Notes: generated by a model not told the origin, from the letters alone. A DNA stretch of 64,000 bases from Candidatus Nomurabacteria bacterium (GCA_023898605.1 CP060230.1:387697-451696), one strand, 5' to 3'; shown: positions 49,492 through 55,159, counted from the stretch's first letter. Translations and numbers: made by a program.

Positions 49492-52400
49492 TTATTTTAA
49501 GATTATTTCTTCGCCCATAAATTTTATTTCTTTAACTCCAGCAGTTTTCTTCAAATCATCTTCGAATCCTGAAACTGTCTCTTTGTATTTCTCTGGCAGA
49601 GTTAGATTTATCACATCACTAGGAATAAGACCCTTTTCTTTTCGCATGTCTTGTATAACACGAACAAGTTCTCGATATTCCCCTTCTCTCTTTAGTTCTG
49701 GAGTTATGTTCATGTCGAAAGAAACTTCACTAGAAACTTTTACCTCTTTTACATTTAACTCTTCCTTGATCAGGTCTTTTAAGTCTTGAGACACTTCTTC
49801 TTTTACAAAGAATGTTTGAAGTGGTTGTCTTAGTGGTATGTTTGTCTTTTTTCTTATTGAATTACCCTCTGTACATAAATCTCTAACTTTTTGCATATCA
49901 GATATTATTTGTGTATTTACCTTCCTTGCTTCTGGCCAGCTTGTAAGATGAACGGACTCTACATCATTATCAGTCTTCAACCTTTGCCATATATCCTCTG
50001 CACTAAACGGTGCAAACGGAGCCATAAGTTTAGCGAGTGTTTTCAAAACATAATAAAGAGTTCTCTTTGCATCATTATCACCATCTTTTAGTCTGTCTCT
50101 AGAACGTCTAAGGTACCATGTAGAGAGGTCATCAATAAAACTTCTCATTTCTCTTACCGGCTCAAACAATTTGAAGTTGTCCATGTTTTCTGTAGAAGAT
50201 TTTATCAGCTCGTTTAGTTGTGCAAGTATCCACTTATCTAATATATTTTTTGATTCTGACAAATCTCGACCTGCCCCGTATCGAACTTGTTCTGGTACGG
50301 GGTAAAGCTCATAAAACGCTAGCACGTTATAAAGCAAACCAAAGAACTTCCTGTTTAGATCAAGTACTGTTTTTTCATCGAAGTTTTTCGCGTCACCTGG
50401 CTGGTTGACTGAGTACATCCACAGTCTCAATGTATCAACACCATATTTCTCAACCATTTCTATAGGGTCAACCGTGTTTCCGATTGACTTACTCATCTTT
50501 TTACCGTTGGCATCTAGTATAAGCCCGAGACTTATAACATTTCTATAAGCTTTTCCTGTACCCATGATTCCTCCTATTGCATGAAGTGTGTAGAACCAAC
50601 CACGAGTTTGATCTATTCCCTCACTTATAAAGTCTGCTGGATAACCACGCTGTTTTCTAAATAAACCTTTATATGGTTGAAATGTTTTTTCAGAATTTTC
50701 AAATGGATAGTGGTCCTGTGCAAACGGCATAGAACCAGAGTCGAACCATACATCTAGAACTTCTTTTACTCTAGTATATTCTTTGCCCCCTTTCTCCAAA
50801 ACGACACTATCGATAAATGGCTTGTGAAGATCTATTTCTAGATTTTGATTCATTGGCATTTTTACAAAATCCAACTCTCGCACTTCTGAGTTTTCAAACC
50901 TCTTGAAATCTTCTACAAAAACTTTGTGGTCCTCTTTTTGGTAGTCTTCACCGTGTGGAGAAAAAAGCCCTGCATTTACATAGAAAAGCCAAGCTGGGCC
51001 ACCATGCGTCACAAAAAGTATTTTTTTGCCTTTGTATTTTTCTTCACAATCAAGAAGTACTTTTCTAACCCTTTGTCCGACTTCGAGCAAAGATTCGCCA
51101 CCTTCTACTTTTCTGTTGAACCAATCTTTATCACTACCTTCTATTGCATCGTGAAAATCTGACCAGTTCTTGCCGTCGAAAATACCAGGATTTATTTCTT
51201 GTAGTCTTTCGTCTTTTATAAGGGATTCTTTTGGAAGTCCAAGAGTTTCTATAACAATTTTTCCAGTTTCTAGTGTTCTTCTAAATGGAGAAGTTATGAC
51301 TAGATCGATACCAGCCCCATTTAGACTTTGTGCTTTTTTCTTTGTCTCTTCTTTACCTTCTTCTGTTAGTCCGTCTTGGCCCTCTCTTATATAACTCACT
51401 ACCCCACTCTTGTTGCTCTCGGTACCGCCGTGTCTCATCACAAAATATTTGTTGTTTCCCTTTTTTGAAAGTTTTCTAAGTGTAGTGATAGAATCCACGA
51501 CAATCCTATCTCCATCGCTAGACTCCCATATAGGAAGTGGTGTTCCCCAATATCTTTCGCGTGAAATTGCCCAATCTTTTAGACCGCGTAGCCACTCGCC
51601 AAATCTTCCGTCTTTTATATGCTCTGGTTCCCAGTTTATACTCTCGTTTTCTTTTACAAGCTTGTCTCGCAATTTTTCCATGCGTATATACCAAGAATCT
51701 CTCGCATAATATATAAGCGCGGTTTTACAACGCCAACAGTGTGGGTATGAGTGTTCGTATTTTTCTTTTTTGAAAAGTAGGTTTCTTCCCGCAAGGTCTT
51801 TGATTATATCTATCGCAACTTCTTCATCTTTTACAAATCTACCTGTCAGAAAATCCATACCGTCTATGTAGTGACCATCTTCTTTTACTAAGTGAAACTT
51901 TGGAAGACCCACTTTAGTTCCTAGTGCAAAATCATCTTGTCCATACATAACAGCAGTATGAACAATACCTGTTCCATCTTCTGTGTTTACAAAGTCTGCA
52001 GAATATACTTTATATGCTTTTGACTTATCCAAAGATTCTGGAGCTAGATTATTGAAGTATGCATATAGTGGCTCGTATTCTTTCCCAACAAGATCAGAAC
52101 CTTTTATCTTTTCAGAAATTTCTACGTCACCATCTAGAACAGAAAGTCTGTCCTCGGCGAGTATTAGAAAATCATTTTCTAATTTTACTTTTACATAAAA
52201 AATATCTTTTCCTACTGCAAGAGCAATATTTCCAGGAAGAGTCCATGGTGTAGTTGTCCATGCAAGAAAATATGTGTTTTCTTCTCCTACAACTTTGAAT
52301 TTTGCTGTCACAGAAAGATCCTTGTCGTCTTGATAACCCTGCGCAAGTTCATGAGAAGAAAGTGCTGTACCACATCTAGGACACCAAGGTAGAACTTTGT

Positions 52401-52953
52401 AGTCCTTGTAAAGAAGTCCCTTTTTCTCGACAGTACTCAATATATTCCAGACAGACTCCATGTACTGATTCTCATAAGTAACGTATGGATTCTTGGAGTC
52501 GATCCAGTAACCAACTCTTTCTGTAAACTTCTCCCACAAGTCTCTATACTGCCAAACGCTTTCTTTACACTTCTGATTGAACTTCTCTACGCCGTATTCT
52601 TCTATCTCTTTTTTGGAAGTGAGTCCAAGCTCTTTTTCAACTTGAAGCTCAACAGGAAGTCCGTGAGTATCCCAACCACCCTTTCTCCTTACATAAAAAC
52701 CTCTCATTGTTTTATAGCGAGGAATTGCATCCTTGAATGCCCTAGCTTCTAAGTGGTGTATTCCTGGTTTTCCATTTGCAGTTGGTGGACCTTCATAGAA
52801 AACAAACTCTTTTCTCCCCTTCGACATACTCAGGGTCTTTTCAAAAATATCGTTCTCTTTCCAGAACTCTAAAACTTTTTCTTCCTTGTCCGCCATAGCA
52901 GATTTTGCGACGGTGGAGTTTTTTACGTATTGATTTTTTGTATTTTCTTCCAT
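49492..52953 (-). CDS. ileS: isoleucine--tRNA ligase (type 2) with an inserted histidine-phosphatase (PGAM-like) domain
   Basis: PPTANGKPGIHHLEA (HIGH), the TTTPWTLPGN editing domain, KMSKS and close collinearity with type-2 IleRS; the track start (53115) overlaps the T-box terminator, so the true start is downstream, likely ATG 52953 or 52998. Confidence 0.85.
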   Translation of the reverse strand: MEENTKNQYVKNSTVAKSAMADKEEKVLEFWKENDIFEKTLSMSKGRKEFVFYEGPPTANGKPGIHHLEARAFKDAIPRYKTMRGFYVRRKGGWDTHGLPVELQVEKELGLTSKKEIEEYGVEKFNQKCKESVWQYRDLWEKFTERVGYWIDSKNPYVTYENQYMESVWNILSTVEKKGLLYKDYKVLPWCPRCGTALSSHELAQGYQDDKDLSVTAKFKVVGEENTYFLAWTTTPWTLPGNIALAVGKDIFYVKVKLENDFLILAEDRLSVLDGDVEISEKIKGSDLVGKEYEPLYAYFNNLAPESLDKSKAYKVYSADFVNTEDGTGIVHTAVMYGQDDFALGTKVGLPKFHLVKEDGHYIDGMDFLTGRFVKDEEVAIDIIKDLAGRNLLFKKEKYEHSYPHCWRCKTALIYYARDSWYIRMEKLRDKLVKENESINWEPEHIKDGRFGEWLRGLKDWAISRERYWGTPLPIWESSDGDRIVVDSITTLRKLSKKGNNKYFVMRHGGTESNKSGVVSYIREGQDGLTEEGKEETKKKAQSLNGAGIDLVITSPFRRTLETGKIVIETLGLPKESLIKDERLQEINPGIFDGKNWSDFHDAIEGSDKDWFNRKVEGGESLLEVGQRVRKVLLDCEEKYKGKKILFVTHGGPAWLFYVNAGLFSPHGEDYQKEDHKVFVEDFKRFENSEVRELDFVKMPMNQNLEIDLHKPFIDSVVLEKGGKEYTRVKEVLDVWFDSGSMPFAQDHYPFENSEKTFQPYKGLFRKQRGYPADFISEGIDQTRGWFYTLHAIGGIMGTGKAYRNVISLGLILDANGKKMSKSIGNTVDPIEMVEKYGVDTLRLWMYSVNQPGDAKNFDEKTVLDLNRKFFGLLYNVLAFYELYPVPEQVRYGAGRDLSESKNILDKWILAQLNELIKSSTENMDNFKLFEPVREMRSFIDDLSTWYLRRSRDRLKDGDNDAKRTLYYVLKTLAKLMAPFAPFSAEDIWQRLKTDNDVESVHLTSWPEARKVNTQIISDMQKVRDLCTEGNSIRKKTNIPLRQPLQTFFVKEEVSQDLKDLIKEELNVKEVKVSSEVSFDMNITPELKREGEYRELVRVIQDMRKEKGLIPSDVINLTLPEKYKETVSGFEDDLKKTAGVKEIKFMGEEIILK
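50941..51474 (-). other. histidine phosphatase superfamily (branch 1, phosphoglycerate-mutase-like) domain embedded in IleRS
   Basis: VMRHGGTESN (RHGxxxxN), ITSPFRRTLETG and VTHGG motifs in a roughly 180-aa insert between PLPIW and DLHKPFID. Confidence 0.6.
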
Positions 52954-53080
52954 CCCATTAGAGGCAGAACGCGATACATCCTTATTAGAAATTTCCATAT
53001 TATTTTGTATATTATATTTTTTCATAACTTGTTTTATCCGATATAATCCGCGATCGCGGCCTCTAACGGGATCCATAAAA

Positions 53081-53410
53081 TTAAAAACTCGTCCTTGTAC
53101 AACGATATATATCATTGTGTAAGGACGAGTTTCCTCGTGGTACCACCTTAGTTACTTCTCATTTACAGCTATTTTGGGCTTACCCATCCAGTTCTACTCA
53201 CCCGAACATTTGAAATGTTGTGGCTTTCTTCTGAAAGCATCGGAGAGTGATATTCTCCTCTAGCGCTATAGGTAGAGTATATACAATTATTAATCAAAAG
53301 CAAACGCTGACAAAAAAGAAAAATATCCCGCACATGCGAGATATTTTCCTTTGTGTCGACTTGGCCACAGGTATAAGTCAACACTATGACTTACCTCTCC
53401 CTGTTGGCAT
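53081..53410 (-). promoter_or_regulatory. T-box riboswitch leader of ileS with a sigma70-like promoter
   Basis: minus-strand RNA AACUAAGG-UGGUACC-ACGAG-GAAA-CUCGU-CCUU is a canonical T-box antiterminator (7-nt bulge, GNRA loop); competing terminator CUCGUCCUU...AAGGACGAG-UUUUUAAUUUU (53081-53130); promoter TTGACG-16-TATTAT (53444-53417). Confidence 0.85.
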
Positions 53411-53497
53411 ACAAAAATAATATCAAATAGGTTATGCCCGTCAATACAAAAATAAACAAAAACCAATAAAAATAAAAAAAATCAACAGGTGAAGTTT

Positions 53498-55159
53498 TTA
53501 CATAACTTCTGGAGATTTTATACCTAGAAGATAAAGTCCGTTTTTTAATATAAAAGTAGTTTTCTCAGCAATCAAAAGATCGTTTTCAATATCTTGATTT
53601 GATTCGTCTATTATTTTTTTTGATGCATACCATGAATTAAACTCTCTACAAAGAGACAAAAGATAGGTTGTTATGTAGTGCGGTGCCCATTCTTCTATAG
53701 ATCTATTAACTACATGTTCAAAACTTAACATAATCTTTTCTAGGTTAGATATTTTTGCGCCAGAAAGTTTTTCTGACGGTACATGACCAGCTTCTTTTGC
53801 ATTTCGAAGGAGTGACATACTACGCGCGTATGTGTATTGGATATAAGGACCAGAGTCTCCTTCGAAGGAAAGTGATTTGTCTGGATCAAAGTTTATATTT
53901 TTTCCAGAAACAACTCTCAGTATCGCAAACTTGAGAGCAGATATAGCAATGTCTTCTGAACTAGAAGTGTCTTTGCCCAAACTCGCAATGTCTTGAATCA
54001 ATGTTTCTAGTACATCGGATGCAATAGGTACACCGCCCTCTCGAGAAGACATCTTCTTGCCACGAAGCGTCATCCTGCCATGAGTTCTGTGTATTGTTTT
54101 TTCTTTCCAATCTTTGTCTATTTTTCCAGCCGCTGACAAAACAACGTCGAAGTGAGATGTTTGTTCGTGGTCAGTTATAACAACAGAAATATCTGGGTTG
54201 TATTTTTTGAACTTAAGAGAAAGCAGCCCTATATCTTTGGCCTCATATGTTGGATACCCTTCGCTGTTTATAAAAACTCTTGTGTGTAGTCCATCCTCTT
54301 CCCCTTTGTAGATTACTGCACCTTCACTTTCTACAAAAACCTCTGGGTGCTCTAGAACTATTTTCTTACCCTCTTCCCCTGCCTCACTCTCATATATAAA
54401 GTCATCAAAAGTTGAACCGAGTTTCTTTGTTTCGTTTATAAAGTATTCTAGATTTAGATCTTTTCCTTTCTTGTAAGCTTCGTATTCTTCTCCTTCTTCT
54501 TTTTGAAAAATCTTTCTGGTTATTTCTTTTACTTTCTCTTGAACGTTTTCGTTTTCTTCAAAAGCTTTTACCCCGTCGACATAACACTGACCTAGAAAAT
54601 CCAACTTTTCTTTTGTAGAAGAAAGTCTATCTAGATTTTCTACACCCTTTTCTAGTAGCGACCAAACTGCCTTGCCTATACCAATCGAAACATCTGAAGG
54701 AAAAGAAAGTCTTTTTACATCTGCGCCAGAATATTCAGAAAGTCTGACTATAGATTCCCCTATCGCGTTGTTCATGACGTGTCCTATATGGAATGGCTTG
54801 AAAAGGTTTGGACTAGAGTGTTCAACGATTATGGTTTTACCTTTGTGAATATCTGTTTTACCAACACTAGAATCAATAGTAGATATATATTTTTCTATAA
54901 AATCATCTGTAAGACGAAAGTTTATAAATCCAGGTCCTGCGACCTCAATACTTTTTATCATGTCTCCTTTTTCTATTTTTGAAATTATAGAGCTTGCTAG
55001 TTCTGATGGATTTTTACCTAGTTTTTTAGCAGAAACCATCGCTATATTTGTAGTCATTTCTCCATGAGAAAAATCGTCCGTGTATTCCACAGTAGGCTTT
55101 TCCTCTATTCCTAAATCTCTGAGAGCCGAGACCAGCAAGGCTTCCACATCTTTTTTCAT
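53498..55159 (-). CDS. argS: arginine--tRNA ligase
   Basis: PFHIGHVMNNAIGES (HIGH), GPYIQYTYARSMSLLR and KMSSREGG. Confidence 0.85.
   Translation of the reverse strand: MKKDVEALLVSALRDLGIEEKPTVEYTDDFSHGEMTTNIAMVSAKKLGKNPSELASSIISKIEKGDMIKSIEVAGPGFINFRLTDDFIEKYISTIDSSVGKTDIHKGKTIIVEHSSPNLFKPFHIGHVMNNAIGESIVRLSEYSGADVKRLSFPSDVSIGIGKAVWSLLEKGVENLDRLSSTKEKLDFLGQCYVDGVKAFEENENVQEKVKEITRKIFQKEEGEEYEAYKKGKDLNLEYFINETKKLGSTFDDFIYESEAGEEGKKIVLEHPEVFVESEGAVIYKGEEDGLHTRVFINSEGYPTYEAKDIGLLSLKFKKYNPDISVVITDHEQTSHFDVVLSAAGKIDKDWKEKTIHRTHGRMTLRGKKMSSREGGVPIASDVLETLIQDIASLGKDTSSSEDIAISALKFAILRVVSGKNINFDPDKSLSFEGDSGPYIQYTYARSMSLLRNAKEAGHVPSEKLSGAKISNLEKIMLSFEHVVNRSIEEWAPHYITTYLLSLCREFNSWYASKKIIDESNQDIENDLLIAEKTTFILKNGLYLLGIKSPEVM

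Follow-up and report, generated by a model that had tools for sequence, protein, structure and literature searches.

The question raised by this locus is what lies between argS and the coding sequence of ileS on the minus strand of a 64,000 nt stretch of DNA from Candidatus Nomurabacteria bacterium (CP060230.1:387697-451696; the whole stretch is referred to here as the window, and positions are counted from its first letter). A first-pass annotation had proposed that a canonical T-box riboswitch was hidden there, at 53081-53410, within the beginning of the long open reading frame (ORF) of ileS. We found all of the motifs that it had listed in place on the minus strand, and we conclude, with a probability of roughly 0.85, that the element is a predicted Ile-specific T-box riboswitch attenuating ileS transcription in a bacterium of the Paceibacteria (Patescibacteria/candidate phyla radiation, CPR).

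The presence of a T-box upstream of ileS is supported by two covariance models. The Rfam T-box model RF00230, run in E-value mode on 52900-53600 (701 nt), produced a full-length alignment at 53272-53118, and the result of this check was divided: the E-value of 6.3e-6 was significant, so that a T-box model score of the kind sought was indeed obtained, but at 34.5 bits the alignment missed the gathering threshold of 93. Deletions account for 72 model positions in Stem I and a further 17 in Stem III, and posterior probability is high where the alignment covers the base of Stem I, the Stem II sequence AGUA, the IIA hairpin and the T-box/antiterminator region. The second model, R1, was built from an alignment (A3) of 16 related leaders from which the window was excluded. 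It matched the window at 53269-53119 on the minus strand with 99.7 bits (E 2.2e-22), the sole significant match in 64 kb, the next-best match reaching 10.9 bits. The fold z-score of the region relative to shuffled sequences was -3.83.

The leader is found upstream of ileS in contigs whose isoleucyl-tRNA synthetase (IleRS) is 59-72% identical to that of the window (L082, L083, L084/85, L087, L088, L089 and L003), and comparison of these related ileS leaders, one of the checks that had been suggested for the locus, revealed a layout common to all of them. L081 belongs to the same species as the window and its leader is identical. The distribution of the T-box in the Patescibacteria is patchy, as most of their other ileS loci do not have it: a search of genome contigs with an IleRS N-terminal profile returned mostly ileS loci from outside the CPR among the matches listed, and the Patescibacteria ileS loci among those matches, with the exception of L003, had no T-box. 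A metagenome scan whose pattern constrained nothing but the T-box bulge and the IIA/B motif recovered 120 loci of three kinds. With R1, classic T-boxes with a long Stem I did not exceed about 60 bits, ileS leaders of the high-GC actinobacterial type, in which Stem I is short or intermediate, scored 66-98 bits, and many low-GC leaders with the layout of the window scored 62-138 bits. Taxonomy of the low-GC metagenome contigs was checked for the clade of the window and for L202, whose arginyl-tRNA synthetase (ArgRS) has named relatives in the Patescibacteria and Woesebacteria by database search; the 30% identity between the ArgRS of the window and that of L202 in a BLASTP comparison is uninformative on taxonomy.

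Covariation was counted over 23 base pairs in an alignment of 59 sequences (A4), which was fitted to the model structure, so that the counts favour that structure: 94.4% of the cells held standard pairs as against 72.8% in shuffled alignments, 20 of the 23 pairs had changed on both sides, and none of 500 shuffles reached any of the observed covariation measures. When the 3′ partners were slid, pairing was at most 54%. Compensatory pairs were present in each helix, that is, in the base and the hairpin of Stem I, the base of Stem II, IIA, A1 and A2, and a parse made without the model agreed on Stem I.

Stem I is ultrashort, with about 32 nt in total (53236-53267, minus strand), and is made up of a base helix AGC/GCU (53267-65 with 53238-36), a K-turn-like GA/GA (53260-59 and 53241-40) and a 5 bp hairpin; the base helix and the hairpin stem both covary. 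The hairpin, GGAGA-AUAUCAC-UCUCC (53258-53242; stem 53258-54 with 53246-42), carries the specifier in its 7 nt apical loop AUAUCAC (53253-47), where the isoleucine codon AUC (53251-53249) is followed by the conserved purine A53248, and the codon matches the downstream ileS. The K-turn-like geometry is suggested by the nucleotide sequence alone: the tandem GA/GA lies beside the 3 bp base helix, but a 4 nt bulge and an extra U are also present. According to the model-free parse the base helix encloses 26 nt in the window and 22-27 nt in most members, most of which have a hairpin of 3-6 bp and a loop of 5-7 nt. The hairpin stems vary (GGAGA/UCUCC, GAGG/CCUC, CCUG/CAGG, GUGUAG/CUACAC and others), yet the apical loop conforms to NNAUC(A/G)(N), with AUC and the purine invariant in the inspected ileS members. 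The earlier suggestion that AUC plus A in a 7 nt loop might form a short specifier stem of the actinobacterial ileS type is strengthened by this invariance.

A positive control was provided by members with other specificities, in which the loop triplet fits the synthetase encoded downstream: CGC precedes ArgRS (L202), AGC precedes SerRS (L147), UGG precedes a Trp/Tyr-family enzyme (L193), GCC precedes AlaRS (L118), GUC precedes enzymes of the Ile/Leu/Met/Val class (L137, L152 and L200) and AAC precedes an enzyme of the Asp/Lys/Asn class (L189). The minimal architecture with such non-Ile loops (CGC, AGC, AAC, UGG, GUC and GCC) was observed in the low-GC contigs L202, L171, L100, L147, L189, L193, L200, L137, L152 and L118/L207. 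We also noted that the synthetase behind the AAC leader of L189 (9031-10881) has a C-terminal editing domain (PF04073, tRNA_edit), which is an unusual fusion.

Stem II (53188-53234, minus strand) has a base helix UCAG/CUGG (53234-31 with 53191-88), which as helix 3 is 97.8% paired with compensatory changes in all four pairs, followed by two purine strands of the S-turn type, AAGAAA (53230-25) and GAGUAGAA (53199-92), and a distal hairpin (53224-53200). The GAAGAA and AGUAGA of Stem II are conserved in the alignments and the AGUA was aligned by Rfam to the S-turn of its model, from which we infer that the three-dimensional S-turn is present. The adjoining Stem IIA/B pseudoknot (53167-53186, minus strand) would combine helix IIA, UGG/CCA (53186-84 with 53177-75), which covaries to CGG/CCG and CAG/CUG in relatives, with a proposed helix IIB between AGC (53180-78) and GCU (53169-67). 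Both GGUAAGCC and the AGC of the pseudoknot are invariant in the alignments and, since IIB is therefore without covariation, this pairing is put forward by analogy with the 21 nt pseudoknot described previously (PMC7583486). Where Stem III would be expected there is a linker, GUAAAUGAGAAGUAACU (53150-53166, minus strand), with purine-rich flanks and no hairpin, although the flanks, AAUGAG and AAC, are similar to the brackets of Stem III in members that have one. Stem III is missing in 27 of the 59 members, all of them low-GC loci, and is found in every high-GC actinobacterial-type member with folding energies of -7.5 to -13.4 kcal/mol. The most reduced ileS leader seen was that of L088 (1327-1451), which is 125 nt long and has neither the IIA/B pseudoknot nor Stem III.

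The antiterminator (53121-53149, minus strand) was found exactly as it had been read in the first-pass annotation: helix A1, AAGG/CCUU (53149-53146 with 53124-53121), the 7 nt T-box bulge UGGUACC (53145-53139), and helix A2, ACGAG/CUCGU (53138-53134 with 53129-53125), closed by a GAAA loop. The two helices, numbered 5 and 6, show compensatory changes, with pairing of 98.7% and 94.8%, respectively. It overlaps an intrinsic terminator (53077-53133, minus strand), which consists of a 22 bp hairpin at 53133-53084 and the U-tract UUUUUAAUUUU at 53087-53077. The 3′ strands of A2 and A1 double as the 5′ arm of the terminator, and the hairpin in which CUCGUCCUU pairs with AAGGACGAG, the alternative to the antiterminator that had been proposed, dominates the minimum free energy fold of the region. 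Taken alone the terminator hairpin has a folding energy of -26.7 kcal/mol, and the antiterminator on its own is not the fold that is favoured, which would be expected if the default state of the switch is off.

The terminator is itself conserved as a structure. In an RNAalifold analysis of 20 leaders, 15 of the 20 pairs of the terminator helix showed compensatory changes. Six sequences have C-G in place of U-A at column 11/52, and in most of these the 5′ strand of A2 also changes from A to G; in the other conformation the partner of this position is the first base of A2, and A-U there becomes G-C or G-U. Terminators in the clade of the window have hairpins of 47-50 nt with energies of -22 to -29 kcal/mol and are followed by T4-7 (at least 5 except in L102), whereas a terminator with a U-run was absent from every high-GC actinobacterial-type relative, which fits transcriptional control in the former and translational control in the latter. 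Several low-GC members were marked as having no terminator by our strict heuristic; on inspection of such calls, L134 and L202 were found to have terminators with a different overlap, and L095 has a hairpin and U-run that do not overlap the antiterminator. A distance of 200-320 nt separates the terminator from the downstream ileS start in L082, L084, L089 and L003, and in the gap thus formed in these four contigs (1220-1453 in L082 and 1306-1455 in L084) a hydrophobic ORF of 49-77 amino acids is called on the opposite strand, to which readthrough transcripts would run antisense.

A promoter-like site, TTGCTT-16-TATACT (53276-53303, minus strand), directly precedes the T-box, with its -35 hexamer at 53303-53298 and its -10 hexamer at 53281-53276. 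From the end of the -10 hexamer it is 7 nt to position 53269, where the model has the T-box begin, and 9 nt to the first base pair of the Stem I base helix, and a transcription start near A53269 is predicted from this arrangement. Sites of the form TTGCNT-16-TATxxT that end 7 nt before the T-box are also present in L082, L083, L084, L087 and L089. In 45 low-GC members, promoter-like sites located there had a mean of 8.5 matches out of 12 compared with 4.7 at random positions, and sites with at least 9 matches made up 51% and 2.7%, respectively. The promoter named in the first-pass annotation, TTGACG-16-TATTAT, is present at 53444-53417 (minus strand, consensus scan) but is probably not that of the T-box: a 17 bp hairpin with a U-tract as its 3′ arm (53353-53314, -26.2 kcal/mol) stands between it and Stem I and would be the first to be reached by transcripts from 53444, and this hairpin, the conserved 7 nt spacing of the proximal site and the enrichment of that site in low-GC members together lead us to assign the proximal site to the T-box.

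The TTGACG promoter most likely serves a separate upstream element that ends in this hairpin. Between argS and the T-box, at 53305-53412 on the minus strand, we observed a small unit that begins from TTGACG-16-TATTAT, continues with a variable 5′ hairpin and then a conserved GUCGACACAA(A/C)GGAAA, and closes with a long hairpin of -26 kcal/mol in which an A-rich 5′ base is paired with the U-tract. The same layout recurs in L083 (1176-1284), directly upstream of the T-box, and in L082 (148-277), about 760 nt upstream and ahead of an ORF without assigned function. The unit has no Rfam match and, with three copies only, could be a small RNA or an argS terminator combined with a regulatory element. 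A 13-codon leader peptide, MCGIFFFFVSVCF, was considered within the upstream element and ruled out, as L083 has no start codon there.

We propose that transcription begins at the adjacent TTGCTT-16-TATACT and that the first 151 nt (53269-53119) would fold into a compact sensor. The apical-loop AUC plus A, held on the 5 bp hairpin with its K-turn-like base, would be offered to the GAU anticodon of tRNA-Ile, and by analogy with the Class III ileS T-boxes of Actinobacteria whose structures have been solved, the S-turn of Stem II and the IIA/B pseudoknot may clamp the codon-anticodon helix. The UGGU of the bulge would pair with the free ACCA end of uncharged tRNA-Ile, its last U implying a discriminator A73, and this pairing would stabilise the A1/A2 antiterminator so that RNA polymerase reads into ileS. 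Once tRNA-Ile is charged, the 22 bp terminator, which reuses CUCGUCCUU and is by far the more stable structure, would form instead and transcription would stop at the U-tract. Both tRNA binding and the direction of the switch are thus predictions, and the element would have to function without contact to the tRNA elbow and without Stem III.

The decoding half of the element most closely recalls the Class III T-boxes, which PMC10482949 and PMC7583486 describe for ileS only and of which that of Nocardia farcinica has a short Stem I without an elbow platform, a specifier in the apical loop and a dependence on Stem II (PMC10482949); PDB entries 6UFM and 6UFG, cited in PMC7583486, are the ileS T-boxes of N. 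farcinica and Mycobacterium tuberculosis. Shared features include the ultrashort Stem I without elbow platform, AUC plus purine in the apical loop, a base that may be K-turn-like, the S-turn strands GAAGAA/AGUAGA, the IIA/B pseudoknot with GGUAAGCC and AGC, the bulge UGGUACC, helices A1 and A2, and ileS as the regulated gene. High-GC actinobacterial-type leaders (CCGG-CCAUCA-CCGG) have the Stem I layout of the window, and members of this type score 66-98 bits with R1 as against 99.7 for the window. The window differs in having an intrinsic terminator and U-run rather than a helix that sequesters the ribosome-binding site, in lacking the Stem III that all high-GC members have, in its loop of 7 nt as opposed to the 5-6 nt described, and in its host, which is a low-GC member of the Paceibacteria (CPR) and not an actinobacterium.

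With Class I T-boxes (the Bacillus subtilis tyrS type, represented by RF00230) it has in common a promoter, a leader, a UGGNACC antiterminator with a competing terminator and U-run, an S-turn Stem II, a IIA/B pseudoknot and a specifier that matches the regulated aminoacyl-tRNA synthetase, but its Stem I of about 32 nt compares with about 100 nt in the Rfam consensus, and the specifier internal loop, AG bulge, distal loop platform and Stem III are all missing. Class I T-boxes in our comparison set were found on type 2 ileS of Chloroflexi, at 106 and 94 bits. Like the Class II glyQS T-boxes, it is a reduced transcriptional T-box in which one module has been dropped and the terminator kept; however, glyQS retains a long Stem I with its platform and drops Stem II, which is the reverse of the situation here, and also retains Stem III (PMC7583486). 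The combination of a Class III decoding module with a terminator, no Stem III and a CPR host is a pairing not described in the reviews (PMC7583486, PMC10482949). TBDB confined its search for the short Ile type to Actinobacteria, and the literature that we searched contained no link between T-boxes and the Patescibacteria/CPR, the primary papers of Sherwood and of Vitreschak lying outside it, so that an earlier mention is possible.

Beside the leaning of the A4 counts towards the model structure, several observations weigh against a functional, transcriptional T-box at this locus. At gathering scores no Rfam family matched anywhere in the 64 kb window. As the Stem I base helix closes off no more than 26 nt, the distal interdigitated T-loop platform that would contact the tRNA elbow is absent, and the 25 nt linker from IIA to A1 has a folding energy of -0.1 kcal/mol, which leaves no Stem III hairpin. 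Both modules have been stressed for transcriptional T-boxes: these are held to need in general the platform of a long Stem I for rapid capture of tRNA, and Stem III, said to form the pocket in which the tRNA 3′ end is sensed, is regarded as indispensable to that sensing (PMC7583486). The 64 kb window encodes no tRNA or transfer-messenger RNA, and ARAGORN detected no tRNA-Ile(GAU) in the window or in the fetched loci with which the anticodon GAU and A73 could be checked. The closest species representatives, L001 and L002, have no leader, as argS ends 4-35 nt before ileS (at about 1100 in L001 and about 1165 in L002), which makes the element dispensable in near relatives; the 545 nt argS-ileS spacer of the window, with the upstream element and the T-box, is thus a presence/absence difference between them. 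The wide shortfall from the Rfam gathering score, together with the missing platform and the missing Stem III, also means that the term canonical in the first-pass annotation has to be withdrawn.

One alternative, which we regard as improbable, is that the leader is a translational T-box as in actinobacterial Class III ileS, in which an alternative helix hides the ribosome-binding site. In its ultrashort Stem I, its Stem II with an S-turn and its IIA/B pseudoknot the decoding half is of the Class III type, and the R1 scores of the high-GC actinobacterial-type ileS leaders are consistent with this kinship. In the literature short or 'ultrashort' Stem I is moreover tied to translational T-boxes, mostly of Actinobacteria, and T-box reviews explain these variants by the relaxed timing of translational control (PMC7583486). 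What decides against translational control in the window is the 3′ half, where the 22 bp hairpin is directly followed by UUUUUAAUUUU and is conserved with covariation in the clade. The ileS start lies 50 nt (earliest candidate) or 123 nt (likeliest) past the U-tract, so that the start region is not sequestered, and the distance from hairpin to start codon is greater still in L082, L084, L089 and L003. No Shine-Dalgarno sequence was found ahead of ileS in the window or in the relatives.

We likewise have little confidence in the view that the leader is the decayed remnant of a T-box whose terminator is constitutive or closes the upstream unit. Decay would account for the loss of two modules that the literature calls important, for the low Rfam score and for close relatives managing without a T-box, but it is difficult to reconcile with compensatory changes in all helices across leaders whose IleRS are 59-72% identical, with an invariant AUC and purine in the loop, or with a match between codon and gene over seven specificities in one architecture. 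A constitutive 22 bp terminator behind its own promoter would in addition be lethal before an essential single-copy gene unless bypassed.

The reading of the region as protein-coding, either as an N-terminal extension of IleRS (MIYIVVQGRVF...) or as a 71 amino acid ORF (53169-53384), arises from the longest-ORF rule, which yields both, and is extremely unlikely, because the 40 closest homologues (of 120) begin 15-25 residues before the conserved REExVLxFW, a 98%-identical protein is called from ATG 52998, 39 codons 3′ of the start of the long ORF, no Pfam family matches either the 71 amino acid ORF or the 54 codons with which the long ORF begins, and what the DNA conserves, with compensatory changes, is RNA helices and not codons. 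The claim that these first 54 codons and the 71 amino acid ORF are non-coding is accordingly well founded, and neither the 40 homologue N-termini nor Pfam revealed a conserved protein-coding N-terminus over the element.

The ORF 3′ of the leader encodes IleRS, as its Pfam domains show, and its coding sequence is placed at 49492-52953 on the minus strand, from ATG 52953-52951 (MEENTKNQ...) to the stop codon. This most likely start was chosen because MEENTKNQ... lines up with the homologue N-termini, MSEENQK... or MEEKN..., although the in-frame ATG 52998 and ATG 53025 are also candidates; all of the candidate starts are downstream of the terminator U-tract. The best 120 database relatives of the IleRS are 1104-1334 amino acids in length, and those that are named belong to the Patescibacteria group, Pacebacteria/Paceibacterota, Nomurabacteria, Minisyncoccia and Zambryskibacteria, which places the host, an uncultured low-GC bacterium, in the Paceibacteria. 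Two further features of this gene and its surroundings were observed. IleRS residues 504-659 (about 50977-51444 in the window, minus strand) form an inserted histidine-phosphatase domain (PF00300, His_Phos_1; E 2e-29) that separates the two halves of the catalytic domain and is present in all of the best 120 relatives (Paceibacteria-type). The gap between terminator and ileS, which is otherwise AT-rich, contains a GC-rich perfect palindrome, CCGCGATCGCGG (53048-53059, minus strand).

The odds appear to us to be even that the leader belongs to a Patescibacteria (CPR) family of minimal T-boxes, each about 115-150 nt long, with an ultrashort Class III Stem I, Stem II, IIA/B, often no Stem III, and intrinsic terminators, located before Ile, Val, Arg, Ser, Trp, Ala and Asn/Asp synthetase genes. 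Should they act as co-transcriptional switches, neither the elbow contact nor Stem III would be needed for the kinetic control of termination; otherwise, these organisms would have to supply a substitute, for example a protein cofactor or an RNA polymerase that is slow or pauses. The rule that a short Stem I denotes translational control would then need revision. If functional, they would be the smallest natural transcriptional T-boxes, would offer a direct test of the kinetic argument and may serve as compact scaffolds for engineering. T-boxes of this kind are missed at the Rfam gathering score, with the result that gene callers stretch ileS over the terminator, as in the long ORF here, and that the control of aminoacyl-tRNA synthetase genes in CPR bacteria is under-annotated.

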